A stretch of 38,304 nt of DNA from IMG/VR virus record IMGVR_UViG_3300042289_000484; one strand, 5' to 3'. The position numbers and the translations under genes are program-made. Positions within the stretch are counted from its first letter, which is position 1. Each line of letters opens with the position of its first letter. A model generated the notes under the pieces. It was not told the origin of the DNA. It made no database searches and saw nothing but the letters and a program-made list of their open reading frames with translations. The stretch comes from a virus. Shown piece by piece: positions 3,843 to 21,907 of this stretch.

Positions 3843-4391
3843 ATGTTTGCAAAACATATCACGCCTGAATTTTACCGCGCACTTGCAAAGGCATTGAAGT
3901 CTGCCAGGTTCACGCCTGTGCAGGAACAGGCGCCTAAATTGATTGCAGAGAACTGCGACCGCTTCAGCATCACCGACAAAAGGATGTTTGCCTATATGCT
4001 TGCTACCTGTTGGCATGAATGCAGATTCAAGCCTATACGCGAATTTAGAGCGGCTGAAGGCCATCCGGTAAGGGCAATGCAAGACAGGTACTGGAATACG
4101 GGATACTTCGGGCGTGGATACGTTCAATTGACGTGGAAGAGGAATTACCAAATTTGGAGCGACATCACGGGCGCTGATTTGGTAAACTTTCCCGATAGGG
4201 CACTTGAACCAACCATCGCTGCCTTTGTTTTGGTAAAAGGCATGAATGAGGGGTTATTTACAGGTAAGCGCTTAAGTCAGTACATTAATACTGAAAGGTG
4301 CGATTACTTCAATGCCAGGCGAACAGTTAACGGCGTGTTTCATGCCGACATAATAGAAAAGGCAGCCAAAGTCATAGAGGCTGTTTTGTAA
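3843..4391 (+). CDS. Endolysin, glycoside hydrolase family 19-like
   Basis: WHECRFKPIRE (two Glu) and GRGYVQLTWKRNY resemble GH19 catalytic and GRG.IQLT..NY motifs. Start moved from 3729 to the ATG downstream of the promoter. Confidence 0.7.
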   Translation: MFAKHITPEFYRALAKALKSARFTPVQEQAPKLIAENCDRFSITDKRMFAYMLATCWHECRFKPIREFRAAEGHPVRAMQDRYWNTGYFGRGYVQLTWKRNYQIWSDITGADLVNFPDRALEPTIAAFVLVKGMNEGLFTGKRLSQYINTERCDYFNARRTVNGVFHADIIEKAAKVIEAVL

Positions 4392-4426
4392 ATGTAGGTG
4401 TTTCTTTTTTTGTGTAGGTTCCACTT

Positions 4427-16593: not shown

Positions 16594-17053
16594 AGCAATT
16601 AAGTACACCACCGCCACGCCCGCTGAACTAAAGGAACTTTGGCGAAAGCAGGAAGAGCGAAAGCAGAAGCGGCGCGCGCAATGGGAAGCGCGCGCCGCTG
16701 GACAACTGAAGCCGAAGCCGGAAAGCGCAAACCGGATAACCGCAAACATCATCCGGTTAATCAATATGCAGTCAGGGTGCTATGCCTTCAGGGTAAACAA
16801 TGTGGGCGTATGGGATGCAGCAAAGCAGATACATCGTAAAGGCAACACGGAGCGCGGAATATCAGATGTGATTGCGTGTATTCGCGGTAAGATGTTGTGT
16901 ATCGAAGTAAAGGCAGGAAAGGACAAAGAAAGCATCCATCAACAGCAGTTCGGAGCGAATGTACAACAGGCCAAAGGGCTGTATTTTGTAGCCAGGTCAA
17001 CAGATCAGTTTATCGAATACTTTGAGCAAATGTTAAAATCAGAAACTTTCTGA
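16577..17053 (+). CDS. VRR-NUC / PD-(D/E)XK nuclease
   Basis: GISDVIACIRGKMLCIEVKAGKD...QQQ fits the D...E-x-K...Q pattern of VRR-NUC. Confidence 0.65.
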   Translation: MAKPTKAIKYTTATPAELKELWRKQEERKQKRRAQWEARAAGQLKPKPESANRITANIIRLINMQSGCYAFRVNNVGVWDAAKQIHRKGNTERGISDVIACIRGKMLCIEVKAGKDKESIHQQQFGANVQQAKGLYFVARSTDQFIEYFEQMLKSETF

Positions 17054-17072
17054 AAAAAAGTAAATAAAAAAC

Positions 17073-17102
17073 TTGACAAATAAATAAAGGCGCGTATCTT
17101 TG
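17073..17102 (+). promoter_or_regulatory. Promoter TTGACA-N16-TAtcTTTG
   Basis: TTGACA at 17073-17078 and TAtcTTTG at 17095-17102 (TTG-N19-TA), in an A-rich intergenic region. Confidence 0.6.
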
Positions 17103-17156
17103 TAAGGTCAAACGACAACAGCACACACAAACATTCAATTTCAAAACTTCTAAGAC

Positions 17157-17405
17157 ATGAAAGTCAAGTCATTAATTTCCAAGTTGCAAAAAATGGCAAT
17201 AGATTTTGTAGTTATTGACCATAACGGACACAATCAAGAGGTAGAATTTAAGATCAACGGTAAATCATACTCAGCAAAATATGACACAAAGCATTACAAA
17301 GTTTATGCTTATAGTCAGGATGTTTGTTACAATGATTGCAATCAAGAAACGTCAAGAAACTTTTTCTACAATTTTAACCAGGTTATGTTAGACGCTGCAC
17401 GATAG
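17157..17405 (+). CDS. Hypothetical small protein in an AT-rich cassette
   Basis: 82-aa ORF. Hand count gives about one-third G+C in the first 120 nt, against roughly half in flanking genes. Confidence 0.55.
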   Translation: MKVKSLISKLQKMAIDFVVIDHNGHNQEVEFKINGKSYSAKYDTKHYKVYAYSQDVCYNDCNQETSRNFFYNFNQVMLDAAR

Positions 17406-17430
17406 GCATTCACTTTTCAATCGCAACACA

Positions 17431-18198
17431 ATGGGAACTTTAGCCACAACCGGAATCACATTCAAACAACTTCACCATCAGGCAGCCCCGAATATCGGGC
17501 TGCGTGCCTGGCAGGTCAAGGTCAAGAAAATCACAGGCGCTTACGATGGCAACGCCATTGCTACGCCCGATCAGATAAACGCGCTGCTGTCAGCAAGCGC
17601 AAAGAGGATTCATACGATTCATACAGCCTCTACTAAAGCAGCAAAGGTTAGCTATTCCCATCGGCAACAGCCGGAGCCACAAGCGGTTCCGGCTGAACCT
17701 TTGGAAGTCAAACAGCCTGAAGTAAATCCTGAAGCGCAACAGCCCGAACAATATCAATCTTATCAGCCATACGAACCGGAGCCGCTTAACTGGCAACTGT
17801 GGGCCGTACTGGTGTTCTCACTTGGTTGCAGCGTGCCGAATATGTACAGCGTGGCGCTGCAAATGAAAGACAGCGCATTCTTAGCAATGGCGATAACCGC
17901 CACGTTTACAATCAGCCCGATGTTACTGCTTACATCCGATAACCGAACAGCGCGCATTGCAGCGTTTATCCCGATTGTTATTGAAGTATTCGCCAATACA
18001 GCAGGTTATTATGGCAACCTTTTGTCTATCACAGTAGGCAGCGACATCATCACGCCTGGTAAGTTCCTGAATATGGTCATGCAGATGGCAGGAACGGGCG
18101 CACGCGGAACAGCCTTATTTTTGGCACTCATGATGGCAGCGGCAATCGCTGCAATGTCGGTAGTGTCAGTTCACTCTATTATAAAAAAGGACGCATGA
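17431..18198 (+). CDS. Membrane protein: soluble N-domain, P/Q/E-rich linker, about four C-terminal TM segments
   Basis: 255 aa. QQPEPQAVPAEPLEVKQPEVNPEAQQPEQYQSYQPYEPEP linker followed by hydrophobic segments. Confidence 0.6.
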   Translation: MGTLATTGITFKQLHHQAAPNIGLRAWQVKVKKITGAYDGNAIATPDQINALLSASAKRIHTIHTASTKAAKVSYSHRQQPEPQAVPAEPLEVKQPEVNPEAQQPEQYQSYQPYEPEPLNWQLWAVLVFSLGCSVPNMYSVALQMKDSAFLAMAITATFTISPMLLLTSDNRTARIAAFIPIVIEVFANTAGYYGNLLSITVGSDIITPGKFLNMVMQMAGTGARGTALFLALMMAAAIAAMSVVSVHSIIKKDA

Positions 18199-18989
18199 AA
18201 CAGCATTACGAAGATGCCCACTATGAAGAAATAGGCGGGCAGGTTCAAAGAACAGAGCCGCCACCATTCCTTACTAAAAGGTTTGTCATTGTGGGTGCAA
18301 TTACAGCACTCGCATACAACTACGCCACCAAAGAGCGCGAAAGCCGCGATGTACTTGCATTCACCGATGAACCGGAGCAATCAAATACGCAGTTCGGACT
18401 GATGGCAACAGCGCCTGAAGCAAAGGCAGCCGCCAAAGTGCCGGAGCAGACAAACGGCCACGACCTTTTCAAGTACGTGATGCTGGAAACAAAGCGAAGG
18501 GAGGCATTAGGCAGGCGCGGTAAAGAACTGGAATCATACATGGATGGTGATTCACCTGCCATCGGGTACGGAAACCGCATCAAATACCTTTCTGCCAAAT
18601 GGAAGCAGGTAGTTGAGGAGCAGAACTACAAAGTAACGGAAGCGCAGGCGCGGGCCATGATGTACGACACGTTTGATAGCCTCAAAGAGACCATCAGCGC
18701 CGACCTGCCACATCTTGACCGGCACGAACTTTGGGCGGTTCAAAGCCTTGCGTTCAATTGGGGTTATGGTAACGTCAAACGATCAGCCCTGTATCAGCAC
18801 CTGAAAGCCGGAAGCAAAACAGGTGACGCACGCCGTGCCTGGATGAAGTGCCACGCAGCCACAGAGAACCACCGGACAAGCCGCCGCTTCGAGTGGGCGC
18901 TTTATACCGGAGACTTCAAAGAGGCAAAGAAATACGCGGACAAGGCATACAACAGTATTGCCGGACGTGGTGACTTGAAACATTATTGA
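18195..18989 (+). CDS. Membrane-anchored lysozyme-like protein (GH24/T4-lysozyme-like C-domain)
   Basis: Weakly hydrophobic segment FVIVGAITALAYNYA. RREALG..ELESYMDGDSPAIGYGN and WAVQSLAFNWGYGNVKRSALYQHLKAG resemble the GH24 EG..Y.D..G..TIGYG and AL.SF.FN.G...S.L...LN.G motifs. Confidence 0.55.
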   Translation: MKQHYEDAHYEEIGGQVQRTEPPPFLTKRFVIVGAITALAYNYATKERESRDVLAFTDEPEQSNTQFGLMATAPEAKAAAKVPEQTNGHDLFKYVMLETKRREALGRRGKELESYMDGDSPAIGYGNRIKYLSAKWKQVVEEQNYKVTEAQARAMMYDTFDSLKETISADLPHLDRHELWAVQSLAFNWGYGNVKRSALYQHLKAGSKTGDARRAWMKCHAATENHRTSRRFEWALYTGDFKEAKKYADKAYNSIAGRGDLKHY

Positions 18990-18993
18990 CGCT

Positions 18994-19269
18994 ATGGACA
19001 ACCTTATTAAGCACACGTCTGGCAAAAGCAGTGGATGGTCTGACGATTTAGGGTGTGGCGATGGGGATGGCGTTTGGTTTGGCACTGGATATGGCGATGC
19101 TATCGGTCAAGGCAGTGCGTGTGGATACTGCGAAGGATGGAGCGACGACGAGGGTCAAGGATATGGCGCTGGCGCTTGTATTGACGACTGCATTGCTGAT
19201 GTTAGTGGTGATGCAGATGGTTTTGGCGAAGATGGCGGATTTGGAAACGGACACTTTTTTGATGTTTGA
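18994..19269 (+). CDS. Acidic Gly/Asp-rich low-complexity protein with 5 Cys (paralog 1)
   Basis: 91 aa, MDNLIKH... followed by GDG/GYG/GFG units. Frame supported by the shared N-terminus with 19606 and 19883. Confidence 0.5.
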   Translation: MDNLIKHTSGKSSGWSDDLGCGDGDGVWFGTGYGDAIGQGSACGYCEGWSDDEGQGYGAGACIDDCIADVSGDADGFGEDGGFGNGHFFDV

Positions 19270-19318
19270 CAATTAAGTCAATCTACACGAATAATTCACA
19301 ACTAAACACACAAATAAC

Positions 19319-19618
19319 ATGGCAAACATGATTAACAAAATTTGCATCATCCGCTCTTATGAAAGCGGTGTTCACTTCGGTGAAGTCCTTGAAACACGCG
19401 ACACGATTCACGGACTATCTGTAACACTCAAAGACAGCCGTCGCGTTCATTACTGGGAAGGCGCTGCTTCATTATCACAGATGGCACTTGATGGCATCAG
19501 GACCGGACGCATCGCAATGGTGCTACCTGAAATTCAGGTAGAGAACGTCTGCGAAATCATACCGATGTCAGATGCCGCAATTGACAACATGAAAAAGCAG
19601 CCGATATGGAAGGTTTGA
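19319..19618 (+). CDS. Conserved-looking small phage protein, function unknown
   Basis: 99-aa non-repetitive ORF. Its last 10 codons and stop overlap the start of 19606. Confidence 0.6.
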   Translation: MANMINKICIIRSYESGVHFGEVLETRDTIHGLSVTLKDSRRVHYWEGAASLSQMALDGIRTGRIAMVLPEIQVENVCEIIPMSDAAIDNMKKQPIWKV

Positions 19619-19620
19619 TT
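19587..19620 (+). repeat. Junction cassette copy 1 (acatgaaaaagcagccgatatggaaggtttgatt)
   Basis: Repeated at 19864-19897 with one mismatch. Confidence 0.9.
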
Positions 19621-19812
19621 AGAAGTAACAATAAGCTTGGTGATGGATATGGGGATGAAAAGTATCGCGGGAATGGAGAAGGTTATTCATTTGGAGAAGG
19701 ATTTAGAAGTGGCACTGGCTATGGTAGTGGTATCAATTGCTACAATGGCGAAGGTTATGGAATCGGAGCCGGAAACGGAGATGGATATAATGATGGCGAA
19801 GGTTCCGGCTAA
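19606..19812 (+). CDS. Acidic Gly/Tyr/Glu-rich low-complexity protein (paralog 2)
   Basis: 68 aa, MEGLIRS... followed by GDGYGDE, GEGYSFGEG and GYGSG units. Mixed codon usage. Confidence 0.5.
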   Translation: MEGLIRSNNKLGDGYGDEKYRGNGEGYSFGEGFRSGTGYGSGINCYNGEGYGIGAGNGDGYNDGEGSG

Positions 19813-19863
19813 CAAGATCAACACACAGCACAATTCACGCAATTAACACACACAACGCACAAA

Positions 19864-19897
19864 ACATGAAAAAGCAGCCGATATGGAGGGTTTGATT
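19864..19897 (+). repeat. Junction cassette copy 2, containing mini-ORF 19866-19895 (MKKQPIWRV)
   Basis: Same 34 nt as 19587-19620 except A>G at 19888. Confidence 0.9.
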
Positions 19898-20188
19898 GAC
19901 TATTTATACAGCTCCGGCTACGGCTCCGGCGACGGCTCCGGCTCCGGCGACGGCTCCGGCTACAGCTCCGGCGACGGCGACGGCGACGGCTACGGCTCCG
20001 GCTACGGCTACGGCTACGGCTCCGGCTACGGCTCCGGCTACGGCGACGGCTCCGGCTACAGCTCCGGCGACGGCGACGGCTACGGCTACGGCTCCGGCTA
20101 CGGCTACGGCTACGGCTCCGGCTACGGCTCCGGCTACAGCTACGGCTACGGCTACGGCTCCGGCTCCGGCTACGGCTCCGGCGACTAA
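19883..20188 (+). CDS. Gly/Tyr/Ser/Asp-only repeat protein (paralog 3)
   Basis: 101 aa, MEGLIDYLYSS followed only by G, Y, S and D. The stop codon comes immediately after the repeat tract. Confidence 0.5.
   Translation: MEGLIDYLYSSGYGSGDGSGSGDGSGYSSGDGDGDGYGSGYGYGYGSGYGSGYGDGSGYSSGDGDGYGYGSGYGYGYGSGYGSGYSYGYGYGSGSGYGSGD
19910..20185 (+). repeat. 276-nt hexanucleotide-type tandem repeat (GGC-NNC)n
   Basis: 92 consecutive codons, all ending in C (GGC, TAC, TCC, AGC, GAC). A higher-order unit of about 31-33 codons occurs twice. Confidence 0.95.
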
Positions 20189-20235
20189 AATCAACAAACA
20201 CAACTTGCACACAACGCACACACAATACACACAAC

Positions 20236-20736
20236 ATGAAACACATCATCATTCTCTTTGCATTCATCTTTTTTTCAGCCGCAATCAGCGCTCAAACCGT
20301 CATTGCGCGACCGACTGAAATGACCATCAACGCCGTACTGGACTGCGTACCTACAACCATCCCGACCGCGCAACAGGCAGAAGCAAGGGATAACCTGACA
20401 ACCAATTATTATCTTACCGTCTCTGCGTTAAGGCAGTTCGATGATGGTATGGATGAACAGGCGATTTATGAAGAGGCAGCCGCACAAACATACGCCGTGC
20501 TTCAAGAATGGTACCAGGCGGAGCAAACCGCCAAAGGCATGGCATCAGGTTACGGCTTTGATCTTAAGGTTGTCAATCCTATCAGATTCTTTGAACTCAA
20601 CATGACCGCTGAACAATACGCAGATCAGGTTGAATCAGCCATAGCGAAGGCAGGTAAAGTAAAAGGATACAGCATTGAGGAAATCAAACGCAGGGCGCTG
20701 TATTGGGGCGTTCAGTTAAACGTAAAGCAGCTATGA
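20236..20736 (+). CDS. Hypothetical protein with Sec-type signal peptide
   Basis: MKHIIILFAFIFFSAAISAQ signal, then an acidic helical body. Confidence 0.55.
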   Translation: MKHIIILFAFIFFSAAISAQTVIARPTEMTINAVLDCVPTTIPTAQQAEARDNLTTNYYLTVSALRQFDDGMDEQAIYEEAAAQTYAVLQEWYQAEQTAKGMASGYGFDLKVVNPIRFFELNMTAEQYADQVESAIAKAGKVKGYSIEEIKRRALYWGVQLNVKQL

Positions 20737-20794
20737 TTGTATTTGCAGTAGTAGTTGTTTTGTCAATCATTGTTTACGCTCATTCAATTGATAC

Positions 20795-20965
20795 ATGGCA
20801 AAGAAAGAACAAAAGAAGGTAGCAGGCGTTGAATACTTTGACGTAAAGAAGTATCAATGCTGGATGTTCCCTACCATCGAAGCAGAGGAGCGGAACAGGG
20901 CGGCCAATAAACAGCAAACAGAACGCCGTATTGAAACGCTCAAGAAGCAAGCAGTTAACAGTTGA
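20795..20965 (+). CDS. Small basic protein (56 aa), not in the ORF track
   Basis: MAKKEQKKVAGVEYFDVKKYQCWMFPTIEAEERNRAANKQQTERRIETLKKQAVNS, followed by a terminator hairpin. Confidence 0.35.
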   Translation: MAKKEQKKVAGVEYFDVKKYQCWMFPTIEAEERNRAANKQQTERRIETLKKQAVNS

Positions 20966-20973
20966 TGCAATAA

Positions 20974-21010
20974 GTCCGGCACACTTTCAGTAGTGTGTCG
21001 GGCGTTTGCA
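20974..21010 (+). terminator. Hairpin terminator closing the accessory unit
   Basis: gtccggcacac / gtgtgtcgggc form an 11-bp stem (two G-U) with an 8-nt loop, then gtttgcattt. Confidence 0.5.
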
Positions 21011-21025
21011 TTTAAAGCAATCACG

Positions 21026-21364
21026 ATGCCAACAGTAAACAAGAAGTCAAAAGCATATCCCTGGAAGCCAAAGGCAGCACCGATGTTTGAGTCTATAAAG
21101 AACAGGGCATGGTCACAGGCGCTGTACAACAGTCAGCGGTGGCGCAAGATGGCGAAGTATGAGATTATGCAGGAGCCATACTGCGTACTGTGCAAGCAGA
21201 AAGGGATAGTGACAACTGACAATCTACAGCGTGACCACATCAATGGATTTGCCACCGAAGATGAGTTCTGGAACGGAGCGCGGCAAACGCTGTGCAAGTG
21301 GCACAATATGCAGAAGGCCGCGCAAACGCGGGCGAGGAAGTCCAAAGAGGGGGGTGGGGCATAA
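21026..21364 (+). CDS. HNH endonuclease (packaging-associated)
   Basis: CVLCKQKG...RDHINGF...LCKWHN is an HNH/zinc pattern. Lies immediately upstream of TerS/TerL. Confidence 0.75.
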   Translation: MPTVNKKSKAYPWKPKAAPMFESIKNRAWSQALYNSQRWRKMAKYEIMQEPYCVLCKQKGIVTTDNLQRDHINGFATEDEFWNGARQTLCKWHNMQKAAQTRARKSKEGGGA

Positions 21365-21448
21365 TCCACAGCCCTATCAGCTCAACATCCTTGCCGCTAC
21401 CCGCGCACACGCAACGGCAAAACAGTAACTTTTTAAAAACGTAAAAAC

Positions 21449-21907
21449 ATGGGAAGACCACCAAAGCCTGAAAGCGCGCACAAAGCAGAAGGCACATACA
21501 GGGCCGACCGGCACGGGAGCAGGTTAAAGGCAACTGAAAGCACCGACCTGAAGCCGCCCGCGCATTTCAATAAAGCGCAAATTGCAAAGTGGAACGAAGT
21601 TGTAAACCACCTTCGCCAATTTGATATTTTGTCCGATCAGGACGCAGACAGCATTGCCACCTACGTTGAATCAGTCCTTATCCAGCGTGACGCATTTCTT
21701 CTGATGCAGCGGGAAGGGTTCCTGGATGGAGAAAAAACACATCCGGCTTTTCGCGTTTACCGCGACATGGAAGCAGTCATAAAACCACTTCGCGAGCAGT
21801 TCGGATTCACACCACGCGCACGGCAATCCATCCACGTGAAAAAGAAAGAGGTCAAAAAGGAAGACCCGATACTGGCAATACTCACAAAGCCAAAGAAAGC
21901 CGTGTAA
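21449..21907 (+). CDS. terS: Terminase small subunit (P27-family-like)
   Basis: MGRPPKPESAHKAEGTYRADRH N-terminus is typical of P27-type TerS. Position upstream of TerL. Confidence 0.7.
   Translation: MGRPPKPESAHKAEGTYRADRHGSRLKATESTDLKPPAHFNKAQIAKWNEVVNHLRQFDILSDQDADSIATYVESVLIQRDAFLLMQREGFLDGEKTHPAFRVYRDMEAVIKPLREQFGFTPRARQSIHVKKKEVKKEDPILAILTKPKKAV

Follow-up and report, generated by a model that had tools for sequence, protein, structure and literature searches.

Glycine-rich dipeptide-repeat frames adjoining DUF6948 genes very probably encode a virtually unannotated family of acidic phage proteins

Introduction

The closest described counterpart of the locus reported here is a GC-rich repeat of Iodobacter phage phiPLPE, published as (KMGCCG)35 and tentatively considered to be an attachment site (Comeau et al., 2012, Table 3, PMC3391216). 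Our subject is a 38,304-nucleotide stretch of viral DNA, IMG/VR record IMGVR_UViG_3300042289_000484 (hereafter the window), which carries between positions 18,994 and 20,188 three open reading frames (ORF1 to ORF3) for acidic, glycine-rich proteins, together with a gene of the DUF6948 family. The phiPLPE array is the same element. It lies directly after gp84, a DUF6948 gene, and the gp84 strand reads NGDGSGYGDGYGYGDGSGDGYG from an ATG overlapping the end of gp84; the repeat unit is of the same type as the GGC-KMC unit of ORF3. The two accounts differ in that the array was published as a DNA repeat without an ORF, whereas we read it as the coding partner of gp84. Literature searches on DUF6948, repeat peptides, fibroin-like phage proteins and glycine-rich anti-defence proteins found nothing; the published phiPLPE array, treated as non-coding DNA, is the only earlier mention that we found.

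At the protein level, the nearest working analogy may be the Gly-rich acidic C-terminal domain of Hfq from Acinetobacter baumannii, in which an Sm core is followed by a long domain of GGFGGQ repeats with an acidic tip; the repeats are needed for function and their number matters (PMC11617691). Both systems combine a small β-barrel with long disordered repeats of glycine and aromatic residues that include acidic residues, and one of the loci analyzed here (L021) has the same single-chain architecture. The differences are that sequence comparison detects no relationship between DUF6948 and Hfq or Sm proteins, that the tails of the window are separate ORFs, and that the repeat is a Gly-X dipeptide with aspartate spread throughout and no distinct acidic tip. 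Bacterial single-stranded DNA-binding protein (SSB) consists of an oligonucleotide/oligosaccharide-binding (OB) fold, a Gly-rich disordered linker and an acidic tip, DDDIPF. It resembles the phage module in joining a β-barrel to a Gly-rich linker of highly variable length, and the module often lies among RecT, Erf and DnaB genes. It differs in that the best fold matches of DUF6948 are Sm rather than OB proteins, the tip motif is absent, and one phage of our set, CRP6, has a separate SSB-like gene.

Other described proteins resemble the Gly-X repeats in composition. Silk chains, with Ala or Ser at most X positions, pack into β-sheet crystallites. In the fibroin heavy chain as in the phage proteins, Gly and X alternate strictly, and X includes Ser and Tyr; in the phage proteins, however, X is Ala in 3% and Asp in 25% of cases, which should prevent silk-like packing, and the silk-derived GenBank name of one of them (XCO36015) reflects composition only. 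The Ser-Asp repeats of the staphylococcal Clf and Sdr proteins are the stalks of cell-wall-anchored bacterial adhesins. They, too, are acidic dipeptide repeats, long and variable in length, and serve as flexible spacers separating functional parts, as in the long form described below, although the dipeptide is another one, aromatic residues are absent and they are not small stand-alone ORFs. FUS-type domains have dense Tyr flanked by Gly or Ser and predicted disorder, as do the phage proteins, whereas the latter are Asp-rich, nearly free of Gln and Asn, 30 to 120 residues long and genetically tied to a folded partner. The three ORFs of the window lack the uncharged, Gln/Asn/Ser-rich composition of FUS or prion-like domains.

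Results

A Gly-rich ORF adjoins the DUF6948 gene in most loci

The elements of the locus are as follows.

18994..19269, + strand: ORF1, 91-residue acidic protein rich in Gly, Asp, aromatic residues and Cys; DNA non-repetitive; hypervariable cassette slot upstream of DUF6948
19319..19618, + strand: DUF6948 gene, 99 residues, conserved anchor of the module (Pfam PF22253, E 3.6e-20)
19586..19620, + strand: junction copy 1, the last 11 DUF6948 codons, overlapping the ORF2 start
19606..19812, + strand: ORF2, 68-residue Gly-X protein with mixed codons, overlapping the DUF6948 3' end; inserted cassette relative to loci L001 and L002
19863..19897, + strand: junction copy 2, remnant of the DUF6948 3' end (MKKQPIWRV-stop), supplying the ORF3 start
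19883..20188, + strand: ORF3, 101-residue (Gly-Tyr/Ser/Asp)n protein
19907..20182, + strand: hexanucleotide array (GGC-KMC)46 encoding the ORF3 repeat (Tandem Repeats Finder score 349, 46 copies, 82% matches)

A preliminary description of the window had presented the three ORFs as paralogues, and had proposed a synteny comparison with genes of the 19319 type. We ran this comparison, and the ORFs proved to be neither free-standing nor peculiar to this phage; they are the variable half of a conserved two-gene module whose other half is the gene at 19319-19618. DUF6948 loci were gathered from IMG/VR, exact-protein look-ups and GenBank phages, and to count as a Gly-rich ORF, a segment had to lie on the + strand, at the DUF6948 end or shortly beyond it, and to reach 40% Gly or more across 30 residues. 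Such an ORF adjoined DUF6948 in 83 of 87 loci, a set whose DUF6948 proteins form 69 clusters at 90% identity and 28 clusters at 70%. Relative to DUF6948, the Gly frame lay in phase +2 in 81 of 90 cases. Since two to three plus-strand frames are open across most arrays, this phase is not a stop-codon effect. Initiation 13 nucleotides before the DUF6948 end (-13) was recorded in 49 of the 73 scored loci; this is a minimum, since not every locus scored at +11 (11 in total) was checked, and L014, if no other, also has an in-frame ATG at -13.

Pooling of 95 distinct arrays (5972 residues) gave 48% G, 16% S, 13% Y, 12% D and 0.6% K+R, with Ser (30%), Tyr (27%), Asp (25%) and Ala (3%) at X in G-X-G. 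Acidic, basic and aromatic residues account for 12.6%, 0.6% and 15% of the pool, respectively, and Gln and Asn are almost absent.

The DUF6948 family comprises 2350 clusters at 50% identity, mostly from phage-like contigs. Cultured carriers of the module include phages of Ralstonia, Iodobacter and Vibrio, the last represented by phage IKEMa6-1, and the pair formed by DUF6948 and a Gly-ORF is present in Ralstonia phage NK-7, Iodobacter phage phiPLPE and Chlorobiaceae phage CV-1-33. The Gly-ORF of NK-7 (XCO36015) is annotated in GenBank as a 'fibroin heavy chain-like protein'. In CV-1-33 (L098, MT192033; 2783-3028), gene25 was called in the wrong, MAMAMALAM frame, and the Gly frame starts MDGINYGYGDGDG and overlaps gene26, the DUF6948 gene. 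In phiPLPE (L096, EU876853; 1190-1460), the 270-nucleotide unannotated gap after gp84 encodes NGDGSGYGDGYG. Metagenome gene callers also often choose another frame or strand for Gly-ORFs, which accounts for ORF1 having a single, near-identical relative among 5.8 billion proteins. A scan for the DUF6948 signature HYWEGA[AC]S across 185,579 genomes, each representing a bacterial or archaeal species, confirmed no locus, in contrast to the abundance of the family in viral contigs and metagenomes. The module thus seems to be rare as prophage, and its carriers may be mostly virulent phages or phages that rarely integrate.

The start codon of the Gly-ORF lies within a conserved tryptophan codon

The ATG of ORF2 is located 13 nucleotides inside the 3' end of the DUF6948 gene (ATGGAAGGTTTGA). 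It falls within the codon of Trp97 (position 19606, context ATA-TGG-AAG-GTT-TGA), and the TGA of DUF6948 is in turn contained in the Leu-Ile codons of ORF2. In an alignment of 34 homologues, the invariant residues of DUF6948 include R41, R42, Y45, W46 and W97, and the C-terminus is conserved as QPVWKV-stop, the general form being W-K/R-x-stop with an invariant Trp. Because W-K-V-stop read one base later yields M-E-[S/G]-[L/V/I/M], the head of the Gly-rich protein is dictated by the overlap, and the heads ME[SG][LV] seen among the loci match this read-out.

The 35 nucleotides of the junction recur at 19863-19897 with 34 of 35 positions identical to 19586-19620, and the head of ORF3 is therefore a copy of the DUF6948/ORF2 junction. 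The head of ORF1, ATGGACAACCTTATT, is a diverged copy of the junction sequence ATGGAAGATTTGATT, with which the Gly-ORF located after the lysozyme gene of L001 begins. An ATG in the DUF6948 Trp codon with a 13-nucleotide overlap is thus found directly in ORF2, through the junction copy and orthology in ORF3, and only as a diverged head in ORF1. The three ORFs share an origin, as the word 'paralogous' in the preliminary description implied. Their common M-(D/E)-x-L-I start, to which that description drew attention, is not primarily a conserved functional N-terminus, being explained by the overlap with W-K-V-stop and by junction duplication; the change of the Leu codon of ORF1 from TTG to CTT in two synonymous steps nevertheless hints at conservation of Leu-Ile in the protein as well.

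Cassettes are exchanged and duplicated around the junction

The flanks of the locus and DUF6948 are 83-93% identical at the DNA level between the window and loci L001 and L002. In phages with flanks 88-93% identical to those of the window, the body of ORF1 (18999-19289) finds no DNA similarity, and other Gly-rich ORFs take its place, one of them fused in frame to DUF6948; L001 and L002 have no counterpart of this body. ORF2 and the second junction are an insertion relative to L001 and L002, and ORF3 is the orthologue of the single DUF6948-overlapping ORF of L001 (55 residues) and L002 (85 residues). Locus L099 is 97% identical to the window through position 19616 and continues after the junction with an unrelated 78-residue ORF. 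Tandem duplication of the junction and Gly-ORF was also found in L091, L020, L028, L033 and L039. Since the flanks stay alike while the Gly-ORFs are swapped and duplicated, the junction behaves as a fixed handle for the exchange of variable cassettes.

DUF6948 is preceded by a leader.

19270..19318, + strand: leader before DUF6948, A/C-rich, free of Shine-Dalgarno motifs

In relatives of the L001 type, the reading frame continues across the equivalent segment, which forms the linker FTTKHTNN of a fusion protein.

The Gly frame is under selection

The preliminary description had argued that the Gly frame is the translated one, and phase conservation, in-frame fusions and purifying selection in relatives all bear this out. 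Seventeen loci encode a long form, a protein of 170-260 residues with the repeat in frame at its center; this protein consists of an N-terminal helix (ME-x-[VL]-K-x-x-FL), (Gly-X)5-100 and a conserved C-terminal domain (C-domain) of about 150 residues. More than 555 database proteins share this C-domain, which has no Pfam entry. In-frame fusions of DUF6948 itself also occur, with the repeat on the C-terminal side in L021 and a Gly-rich segment on the N-terminal side in L001, P0003 and P0005. For the non-repetitive Gly-rich subgroup with the head MEDL (six loci, the L019 group), the ratio of nonsynonymous to synonymous substitutions (dN/dS) was 0.05-0.19 at dS 0.33-1.04. The comparison of ORF1 with its counterpart in L099 involves only 3 nucleotide differences, too few to inform on selection.

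Gly codons are GGY in 94% of cases, and GGC occurs even in loci with a GC content of 31-35%, a preference that fits translational selection. In L019, L020, L028, L033 and L039, a stop codon directly precedes the ATG of the Gly-ORF, which argues for independent initiation. By these comparisons, the Gly frame is a reading frame under selection. Within ORF3 itself, all six frames of the array are open, and the open frame of this ORF is therefore no evidence of coding.

Repeat lengths deduced from metagenomic contigs should be treated with caution, as the arrays disturb assembly; in L090, a run of N interrupts the array (2800-2910).

Composition of the three ORFs and searches for relatives

The window is a phage genome with every gene on the + strand, and positions 18195-20736 are 100% identical to a 39-kb metagenome contig of the JGI. 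Strand, coordinates and composition of the three ORFs were as first described. ORF1 contains 24 Gly (26%), 15 Asp and 5 Cys (net charge -16). ORF2, the least typical of the three, contains 23 Gly (34%), 7 Tyr and 5 Lys/Arg (net charge -5). ORF3 contains 43 Gly, 22 Tyr, 21 Ser and 10 Asp and is devoid of Lys, Arg, His, Gln and Asn (net charge -11); beyond residue 8, it consists of G, Y, S and D only. Asp and Glu together make up 11-20% of the three proteins. The long ORFs of the window contain on average 6.8% Gly, 3.8% Tyr and 5.4% Asp, so that the composition of the three ORFs is far beyond chance. GxG occurs 12, 16 and 38 times and GG 1, 0 and 0 times in ORF1, ORF2 and ORF3, respectively, and [G/S]Y[G/S] triplets number 2 in ORF1, 4 in ORF2 and 20 in the 101 residues of ORF3. 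The C-termini are HFFDV, EGSG and GSGD, in the same order. None of the three ORFs has a signal peptide or hydrophobic segment, the longest hydrophobic run being 2-3 residues, and the RTX nonapeptide motif GGxGxD occurs in none of them.

The contrast in codon usage reported for ORF2 and ORF3 was reproduced by codon counts. ORF2 uses GGT 7, GGA 9, GGC 5 and GGG 2 times, and TAT 6 times versus TAC once. ORF3 uses GGC for 42 of 43 Gly, TAC for 21 of 22 Tyr and GAC for all 10 Asp, with 17 TCC and 4 AGC.

The earlier statement that no characterized function is known for such proteins also held: Pfam, PHROGs, NCBIfam, PADLOC and PDB assigned the three ORFs to no characterized function or family. Searches of these resources with the three ORFs, DUF6948 and the long form returned only low-complexity or engineered-linker matches (TrAA12, KRTAP, GS linkers and His-tagged 'Lysis protein' chains), which were discarded as such. 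PADLOC gave no match for the three ORFs, DUF6948 or the long form, and PHROGs none for the three ORFs. A blastn search of the region against GenBank phages gave zero matches, and a scan of IMG/VR with back-translated ORF1 found nothing. The exact ORF2 protein occurs on 11 metagenomic contigs.

Predicted structure of DUF6948 and of the long-form C-domain

The AlphaFold2 model of DUF6948 is a small barrel of long bent strands (mean predicted local distance difference test score, pLDDT, 89.4). Nearly all of the top 50 Foldseek matches in PDB are Sm/LSm chains; these matches are weak (E 3e-3 to 3e-2, template modeling score, TM, 0.43-0.57), the best of them reaching E 3e-3 with TM 0.45-0.57, and the N-terminal helix of Sm proteins is absent. 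A profile search of PDB sequences with DUF6948 returned nothing relevant. DUF6948 was also found twice in one genome segment, as two tandem genes each with its own Gly-ORF or long form (L007, 2561-2941 and 3501-3797; L060, 3303-3584 and 4001-4282), or as two domains of a single protein of 216-221 residues; examples of duplication include P0209, P0252 and P0340.

In the model of the long form, the C-domain has a pLDDT of 88 and the repeat a pLDDT below 50.

Long-form examples: L006 2842-3504, L035, L048, L061 and L081; proteins P0083-P0202

The C-domain displays two near-invariant motifs, C-Y-[IV]-x-K...F-A-H-G-x-T and W-H-x-x-L-T-G-S-C-x-x-G-R. Foldseek found no match for it in PDB and, in BFVD, only viral proteins that are uncharacterized or named after their composition. 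It occurs nowhere in the window. The automatic names 'colicin E3' and 'Lamprin' given to long forms reflect composition only. In Riemerella phage vB_RanS_CRP6 (L097, OQ789245), a 'ribonuclease inhibitor' (2294-2902) consists of BspA-type leucine-rich repeats fused to the same C-domain, in the place of the Gly-X linker; two genes upstream, 1851-2147 encodes an SSB-like protein ending in DDDLPF. In L034, the ORF upstream of DUF6948 (3-539) encodes pentapeptide-like repeats (FHGGD/FRGGN/FYGGD), about 25 in number, with a Cys-rich segment after them; it is a further protein of this neighborhood that joins repeats to a domain.

Genomic neighborhood

Two genes flank the locus in the window.

18195..18989, + strand: lysozyme gene (Pfam PF00959, E 2.6e-11), upstream context
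20236..20736, + strand: downstream gene, 166 residues, N-terminal signal-peptide-like segment, context

The remaining gene content, according to Pfam and PHROGs, includes DnaB, a helicase and a methylase, and HNH, TerS and TerL genes from 20993. Adjacency to a lysozyme gene is confined to the clade of the window (L001, L002, L091 and L100) and does not extend to other DUF6948 loci. The product of 20236-20736 has no family match in Pfam, PHROGs, PADLOC or NCBIfam, and its gene is kept in L001, L002 and L091, not in the wider locus set. In other phages, RecT, Erf, SSB or DnaB genes are often near the module.

Upstream of the locus, 17431-18198 encodes a 255-residue protein with several hydrophobic C-terminal segments and overlaps the start of the lysozyme gene by 4 nucleotides (ATGA). 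The lysozyme (18195-18989) has an N-proximal hydrophobic stretch, FVIVGAITALAYNYA. The two genes may form a holin/endolysin pair with an endolysin of the signal-anchor-release type.

The leaders at 19270-19318, 19813-19866 and 20189-20235 are A/C-rich, of the CACACAAC type, and lack Shine-Dalgarno motifs; Tandem Repeats Finder reported matches at 19845-19866 and 20208-20233. A Shine-Dalgarno-like 4-mer precedes 3 of 45 genes of the window versus a background of 12%, a scarcity that fits a host initiating independently of this motif, such as a member of the Bacteroidota, and falls short of proof. The best sigma-70-like match of the region (19266-19295; TTGACA, 18-nucleotide spacer, AATAAT, 11/12) lies at the end of ORF1, upstream of DUF6948. 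Its significance is doubtful: shuffled sequence contains at least as many such matches as the region, and promoters of this type may not be in use in the host. Scans of 17000-21500 for Rfam families, tRNAs, promoters and terminators gave nothing meaningful.

Discussion

The three ORFs are very probably genuine coding members of a large, virtually unannotated family of acidic (Gly-X)n phage proteins, in which the founding copy is coupled to DUF6948, the head is a read-out of the overlap, and diversity arises by slippage growth and cassette swapping. When the mechanism proposed below is added to this description, we consider the whole to be evenly poised between right and wrong.

By the same very probable description, the founding Gly-ORF is translationally coupled to DUF6948 through the ATG located inside the invariant Trp codon, and its head travels along with junction duplication, as in ORF3, or with cassette exchange, as in ORF1. 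The arrays lengthen and become homogeneous through slippage of the GGC-KMC hexanucleotide. In the proposed mechanism, the products would be intrinsically disordered polyanionic chains studded with aromatic residues and without a fold of their own, acting jointly with the DUF6948 barrel at a ratio fixed by coupled translation. Docking onto the barrel would probably involve the short hydrophobic head, and the flexible tails or linkers might gate or extend binding by the barrel, with a logic akin to that of the Gly-rich acidic C-terminal tail of Hfq or of the disordered SSB linker. That disordered acidic and aromatic tails work with the DUF6948 barrel in this manner is a tentative proposal, less likely than not to be right. 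Hypervariability, multiple copies per genome and the frequent location of the module near early or recombination genes suggest an accessory role in host interaction (takeover or counter-defence) rather than to a structural or lysis function. On a more specific version, which we regard as rather unlikely, a ring-forming, Sm-like barrel would be armed in trans with interchangeable, nucleic-acid-like tails of polyanionic and aromatic character, or through them with an effector C-domain, and this device would capture or blind a host RNA- or DNA-binding protein or an immune protein. Exchange of junction cassettes might then let phages re-tool the tails rapidly, the diversification being built on a start codon hidden in a Trp codon.

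Several observations weigh against this reading. In most arrays, all Gly residues share one codon (median codon entropy 0), so that these arrays are young or homogenized by slippage; this also fits a young, slippage-driven DNA element. Hexamer slippage keeps the frame automatically. In L003, a one-base frame break is found inside the array (4370-4400), although near the contig end. The case for translation rests on sequence comparison, and the complex between DUF6948 and the Gly-ORF product is a deduction from the same source. The Sm-like assignment is weak (best Foldseek E about 3e-3, TM about 0.5), and hhalign comparisons of the DUF6948 alignment with E. coli Hfq and with an archaeal Sm protein yielded probabilities below 1%. 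No shared C-terminal tip motif was found, the 59 distinct short forms all ending within the repeat. The tail is a separate polypeptide in most phages, and docking of a head of 4-10 residues to the barrel is a conjecture. Finally, no neighbor beyond DUF6948, the Gly-ORF and the C-domain is conserved across loci, so that the functional context is only suggestive.

The arrays might primarily be DNA elements (attachment or recombination sites, packaging or replication signals, or slippage-prone contingency tracts) bearing incidental frames. This would agree with the 46 hexanucleotide copies of ORF3 and their six open frames, with the single Gly codon of most arrays, with an array GC of 0.64 versus 0.47 for the locus, with assemblies that break or show runs of N at arrays (L003 and L090), and with the speculation that the GC-rich phiPLPE repeat is an attachment site (Comeau et al., 2012, PMC3391216). 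We consider it very unlikely, because the Gly phase relative to DUF6948 is fixed (81/90) and the frame is kept despite heads of variable length, because codon-diverse, non-repetitive members (ORF1, ORF2 and the L019 group) hold the Gly-X pattern, with the low dN/dS of 0.05-0.19, because the repeat is an in-frame linker of a two-part protein (17 loci, more than 555 proteins), and because Ala (GCC), equally reachable in the KMC unit, occupies just 3% of X positions. Decay of the long form is the next possibility to weigh: loss of the C-domain would have left an N-helix and a linker that stay open since simple repeats lack stops. The use of the repeat as a plain linker in the long form, the lack of any C-domain in the window, the extreme variability and the single database relative of ORF1 can be read in this way. 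Short forms, however, predominate (about 65 of 83 loci) and accompany DUF6948 proteins with mutual identities of just 30-95%; their ATG and phase are retained, duplication rather than loss is seen (the window, L091 and L039), and the non-repetitive ones are under purifying selection, all of which makes decay decidedly improbable. Access to ORF2 by -1 ribosomal frameshifting near the DUF6948 end, at G-AAA-AAG (19591-19597), would generate a barrel-tail fusion of the kind that L021 encodes in one frame. The Gly frame is indeed the -1 frame of DUF6948 and is open from 19585, GAAAAAG lies 9 nucleotides upstream of the ATG, and junction copy 2 has kept this motif. The heptamer is nonetheless absent from L002 and L003, five loci (L019, L020, L028, L033 and L039) have a -1-frame stop immediately before the ATG, and the conserved item is the ATG rather than the slippery site. 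Programmed frameshifting was accordingly rejected as a general mechanism, and its use in ORF2 is highly improbable.

The remaining alternatives accept translation and differ from the joint action of tails and barrel that we favor. The lead hypothesis of the preliminary description was that the proteins are stand-alone scaffolds of the FUS type, built of stickers and spacers, which form condensates or a matrix in the infected cell. The density of [G/S]Y[G/S] triplets in ORF3 (20 in 101 residues), the family-wide 15% of aromatic residues spaced by Gly or Ser, and the predicted disorder speak for it. In FUS, negative charge introduced by phosphorylation or phosphomimetic substitution suppresses condensation, and the family, with 12.6% acidic versus 0.6% basic residues and almost no Gln or Asn, may resemble this charged, non-condensing state rather than the native low-complexity domain, which weakens the idea. 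Strict coupling to DUF6948, occasional fusion to it, a long form in which the repeat serves simply as a linker, and repeat lengths from about 5 to 100 residues within one family likewise argue against condensates, which we hold to be quite unlikely. Free acidic decoys or nucleic-acid mimics, close to the decoy and mimic hypotheses of the preliminary description, titrating a host DNA- or RNA-binding or defence protein independently of DUF6948 and evolving fast in an arms race, would account for the net charges (-16, -5 and -11) combined with aromatic side chains, for the replacement of cassettes between phages that are 88-97% identical, for several paralogues per genome and for the frequent position among early or recombination genes in other phages. 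Known mimics such as Ocr and ArdA are folded proteins, PADLOC detected no similarity to any known defence or anti-defence family, and the near-universal coupling to DUF6948 would be left unexplained; we regard free decoys as unlikely. The position of the ORFs after the endolysin gene, between the lysozyme gene and the gene for a signal-peptide protein, suggested accessories of the lysis cassette or secreted Gly-rich peptides of the microcin or RiPP (ribosomally synthesized and post-translationally modified peptide) kind. Precursors of the microcin B17 type have a similar Gly/Ser/Cys-rich composition. The three ORFs have neither a signal peptide nor a hydrophobic segment, the window contains no leader with modification or export genes (Pfam and PHROGs), no neighbors of this kind are conserved across loci, and outside the clade of the window the module is not beside lysis genes. 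A lysis role was rejected because this link is not conserved, and the secreted-peptide idea as a whole is barely conceivable.

Since our searches of Pfam, PHROGs, NCBIfam, PADLOC, PDB and the literature found neither a characterized homologue nor a described system for the Gly-ORFs, DUF6948 or the C-domain, the pair would be a new kind of phage module, with a tentatively proposed function. About 95% of the sampled DUF6948 loci carry a repeat ORF that gene callers often skip, place in the wrong frame or on the wrong strand, or name after silk, lamprin or colicin. If our reading is true, an unrecognized class of genes is present in thousands of phage genomes, and the phiPLPE repeat published as non-coding is a gene. 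The presence of the module in cultured phages makes its function directly testable. On the same condition, phages would widely use stand-alone, disordered dipeptide-repeat proteins tied by overlapping translation to a small barrel, an arrangement for which our searches found no characterized precedent.

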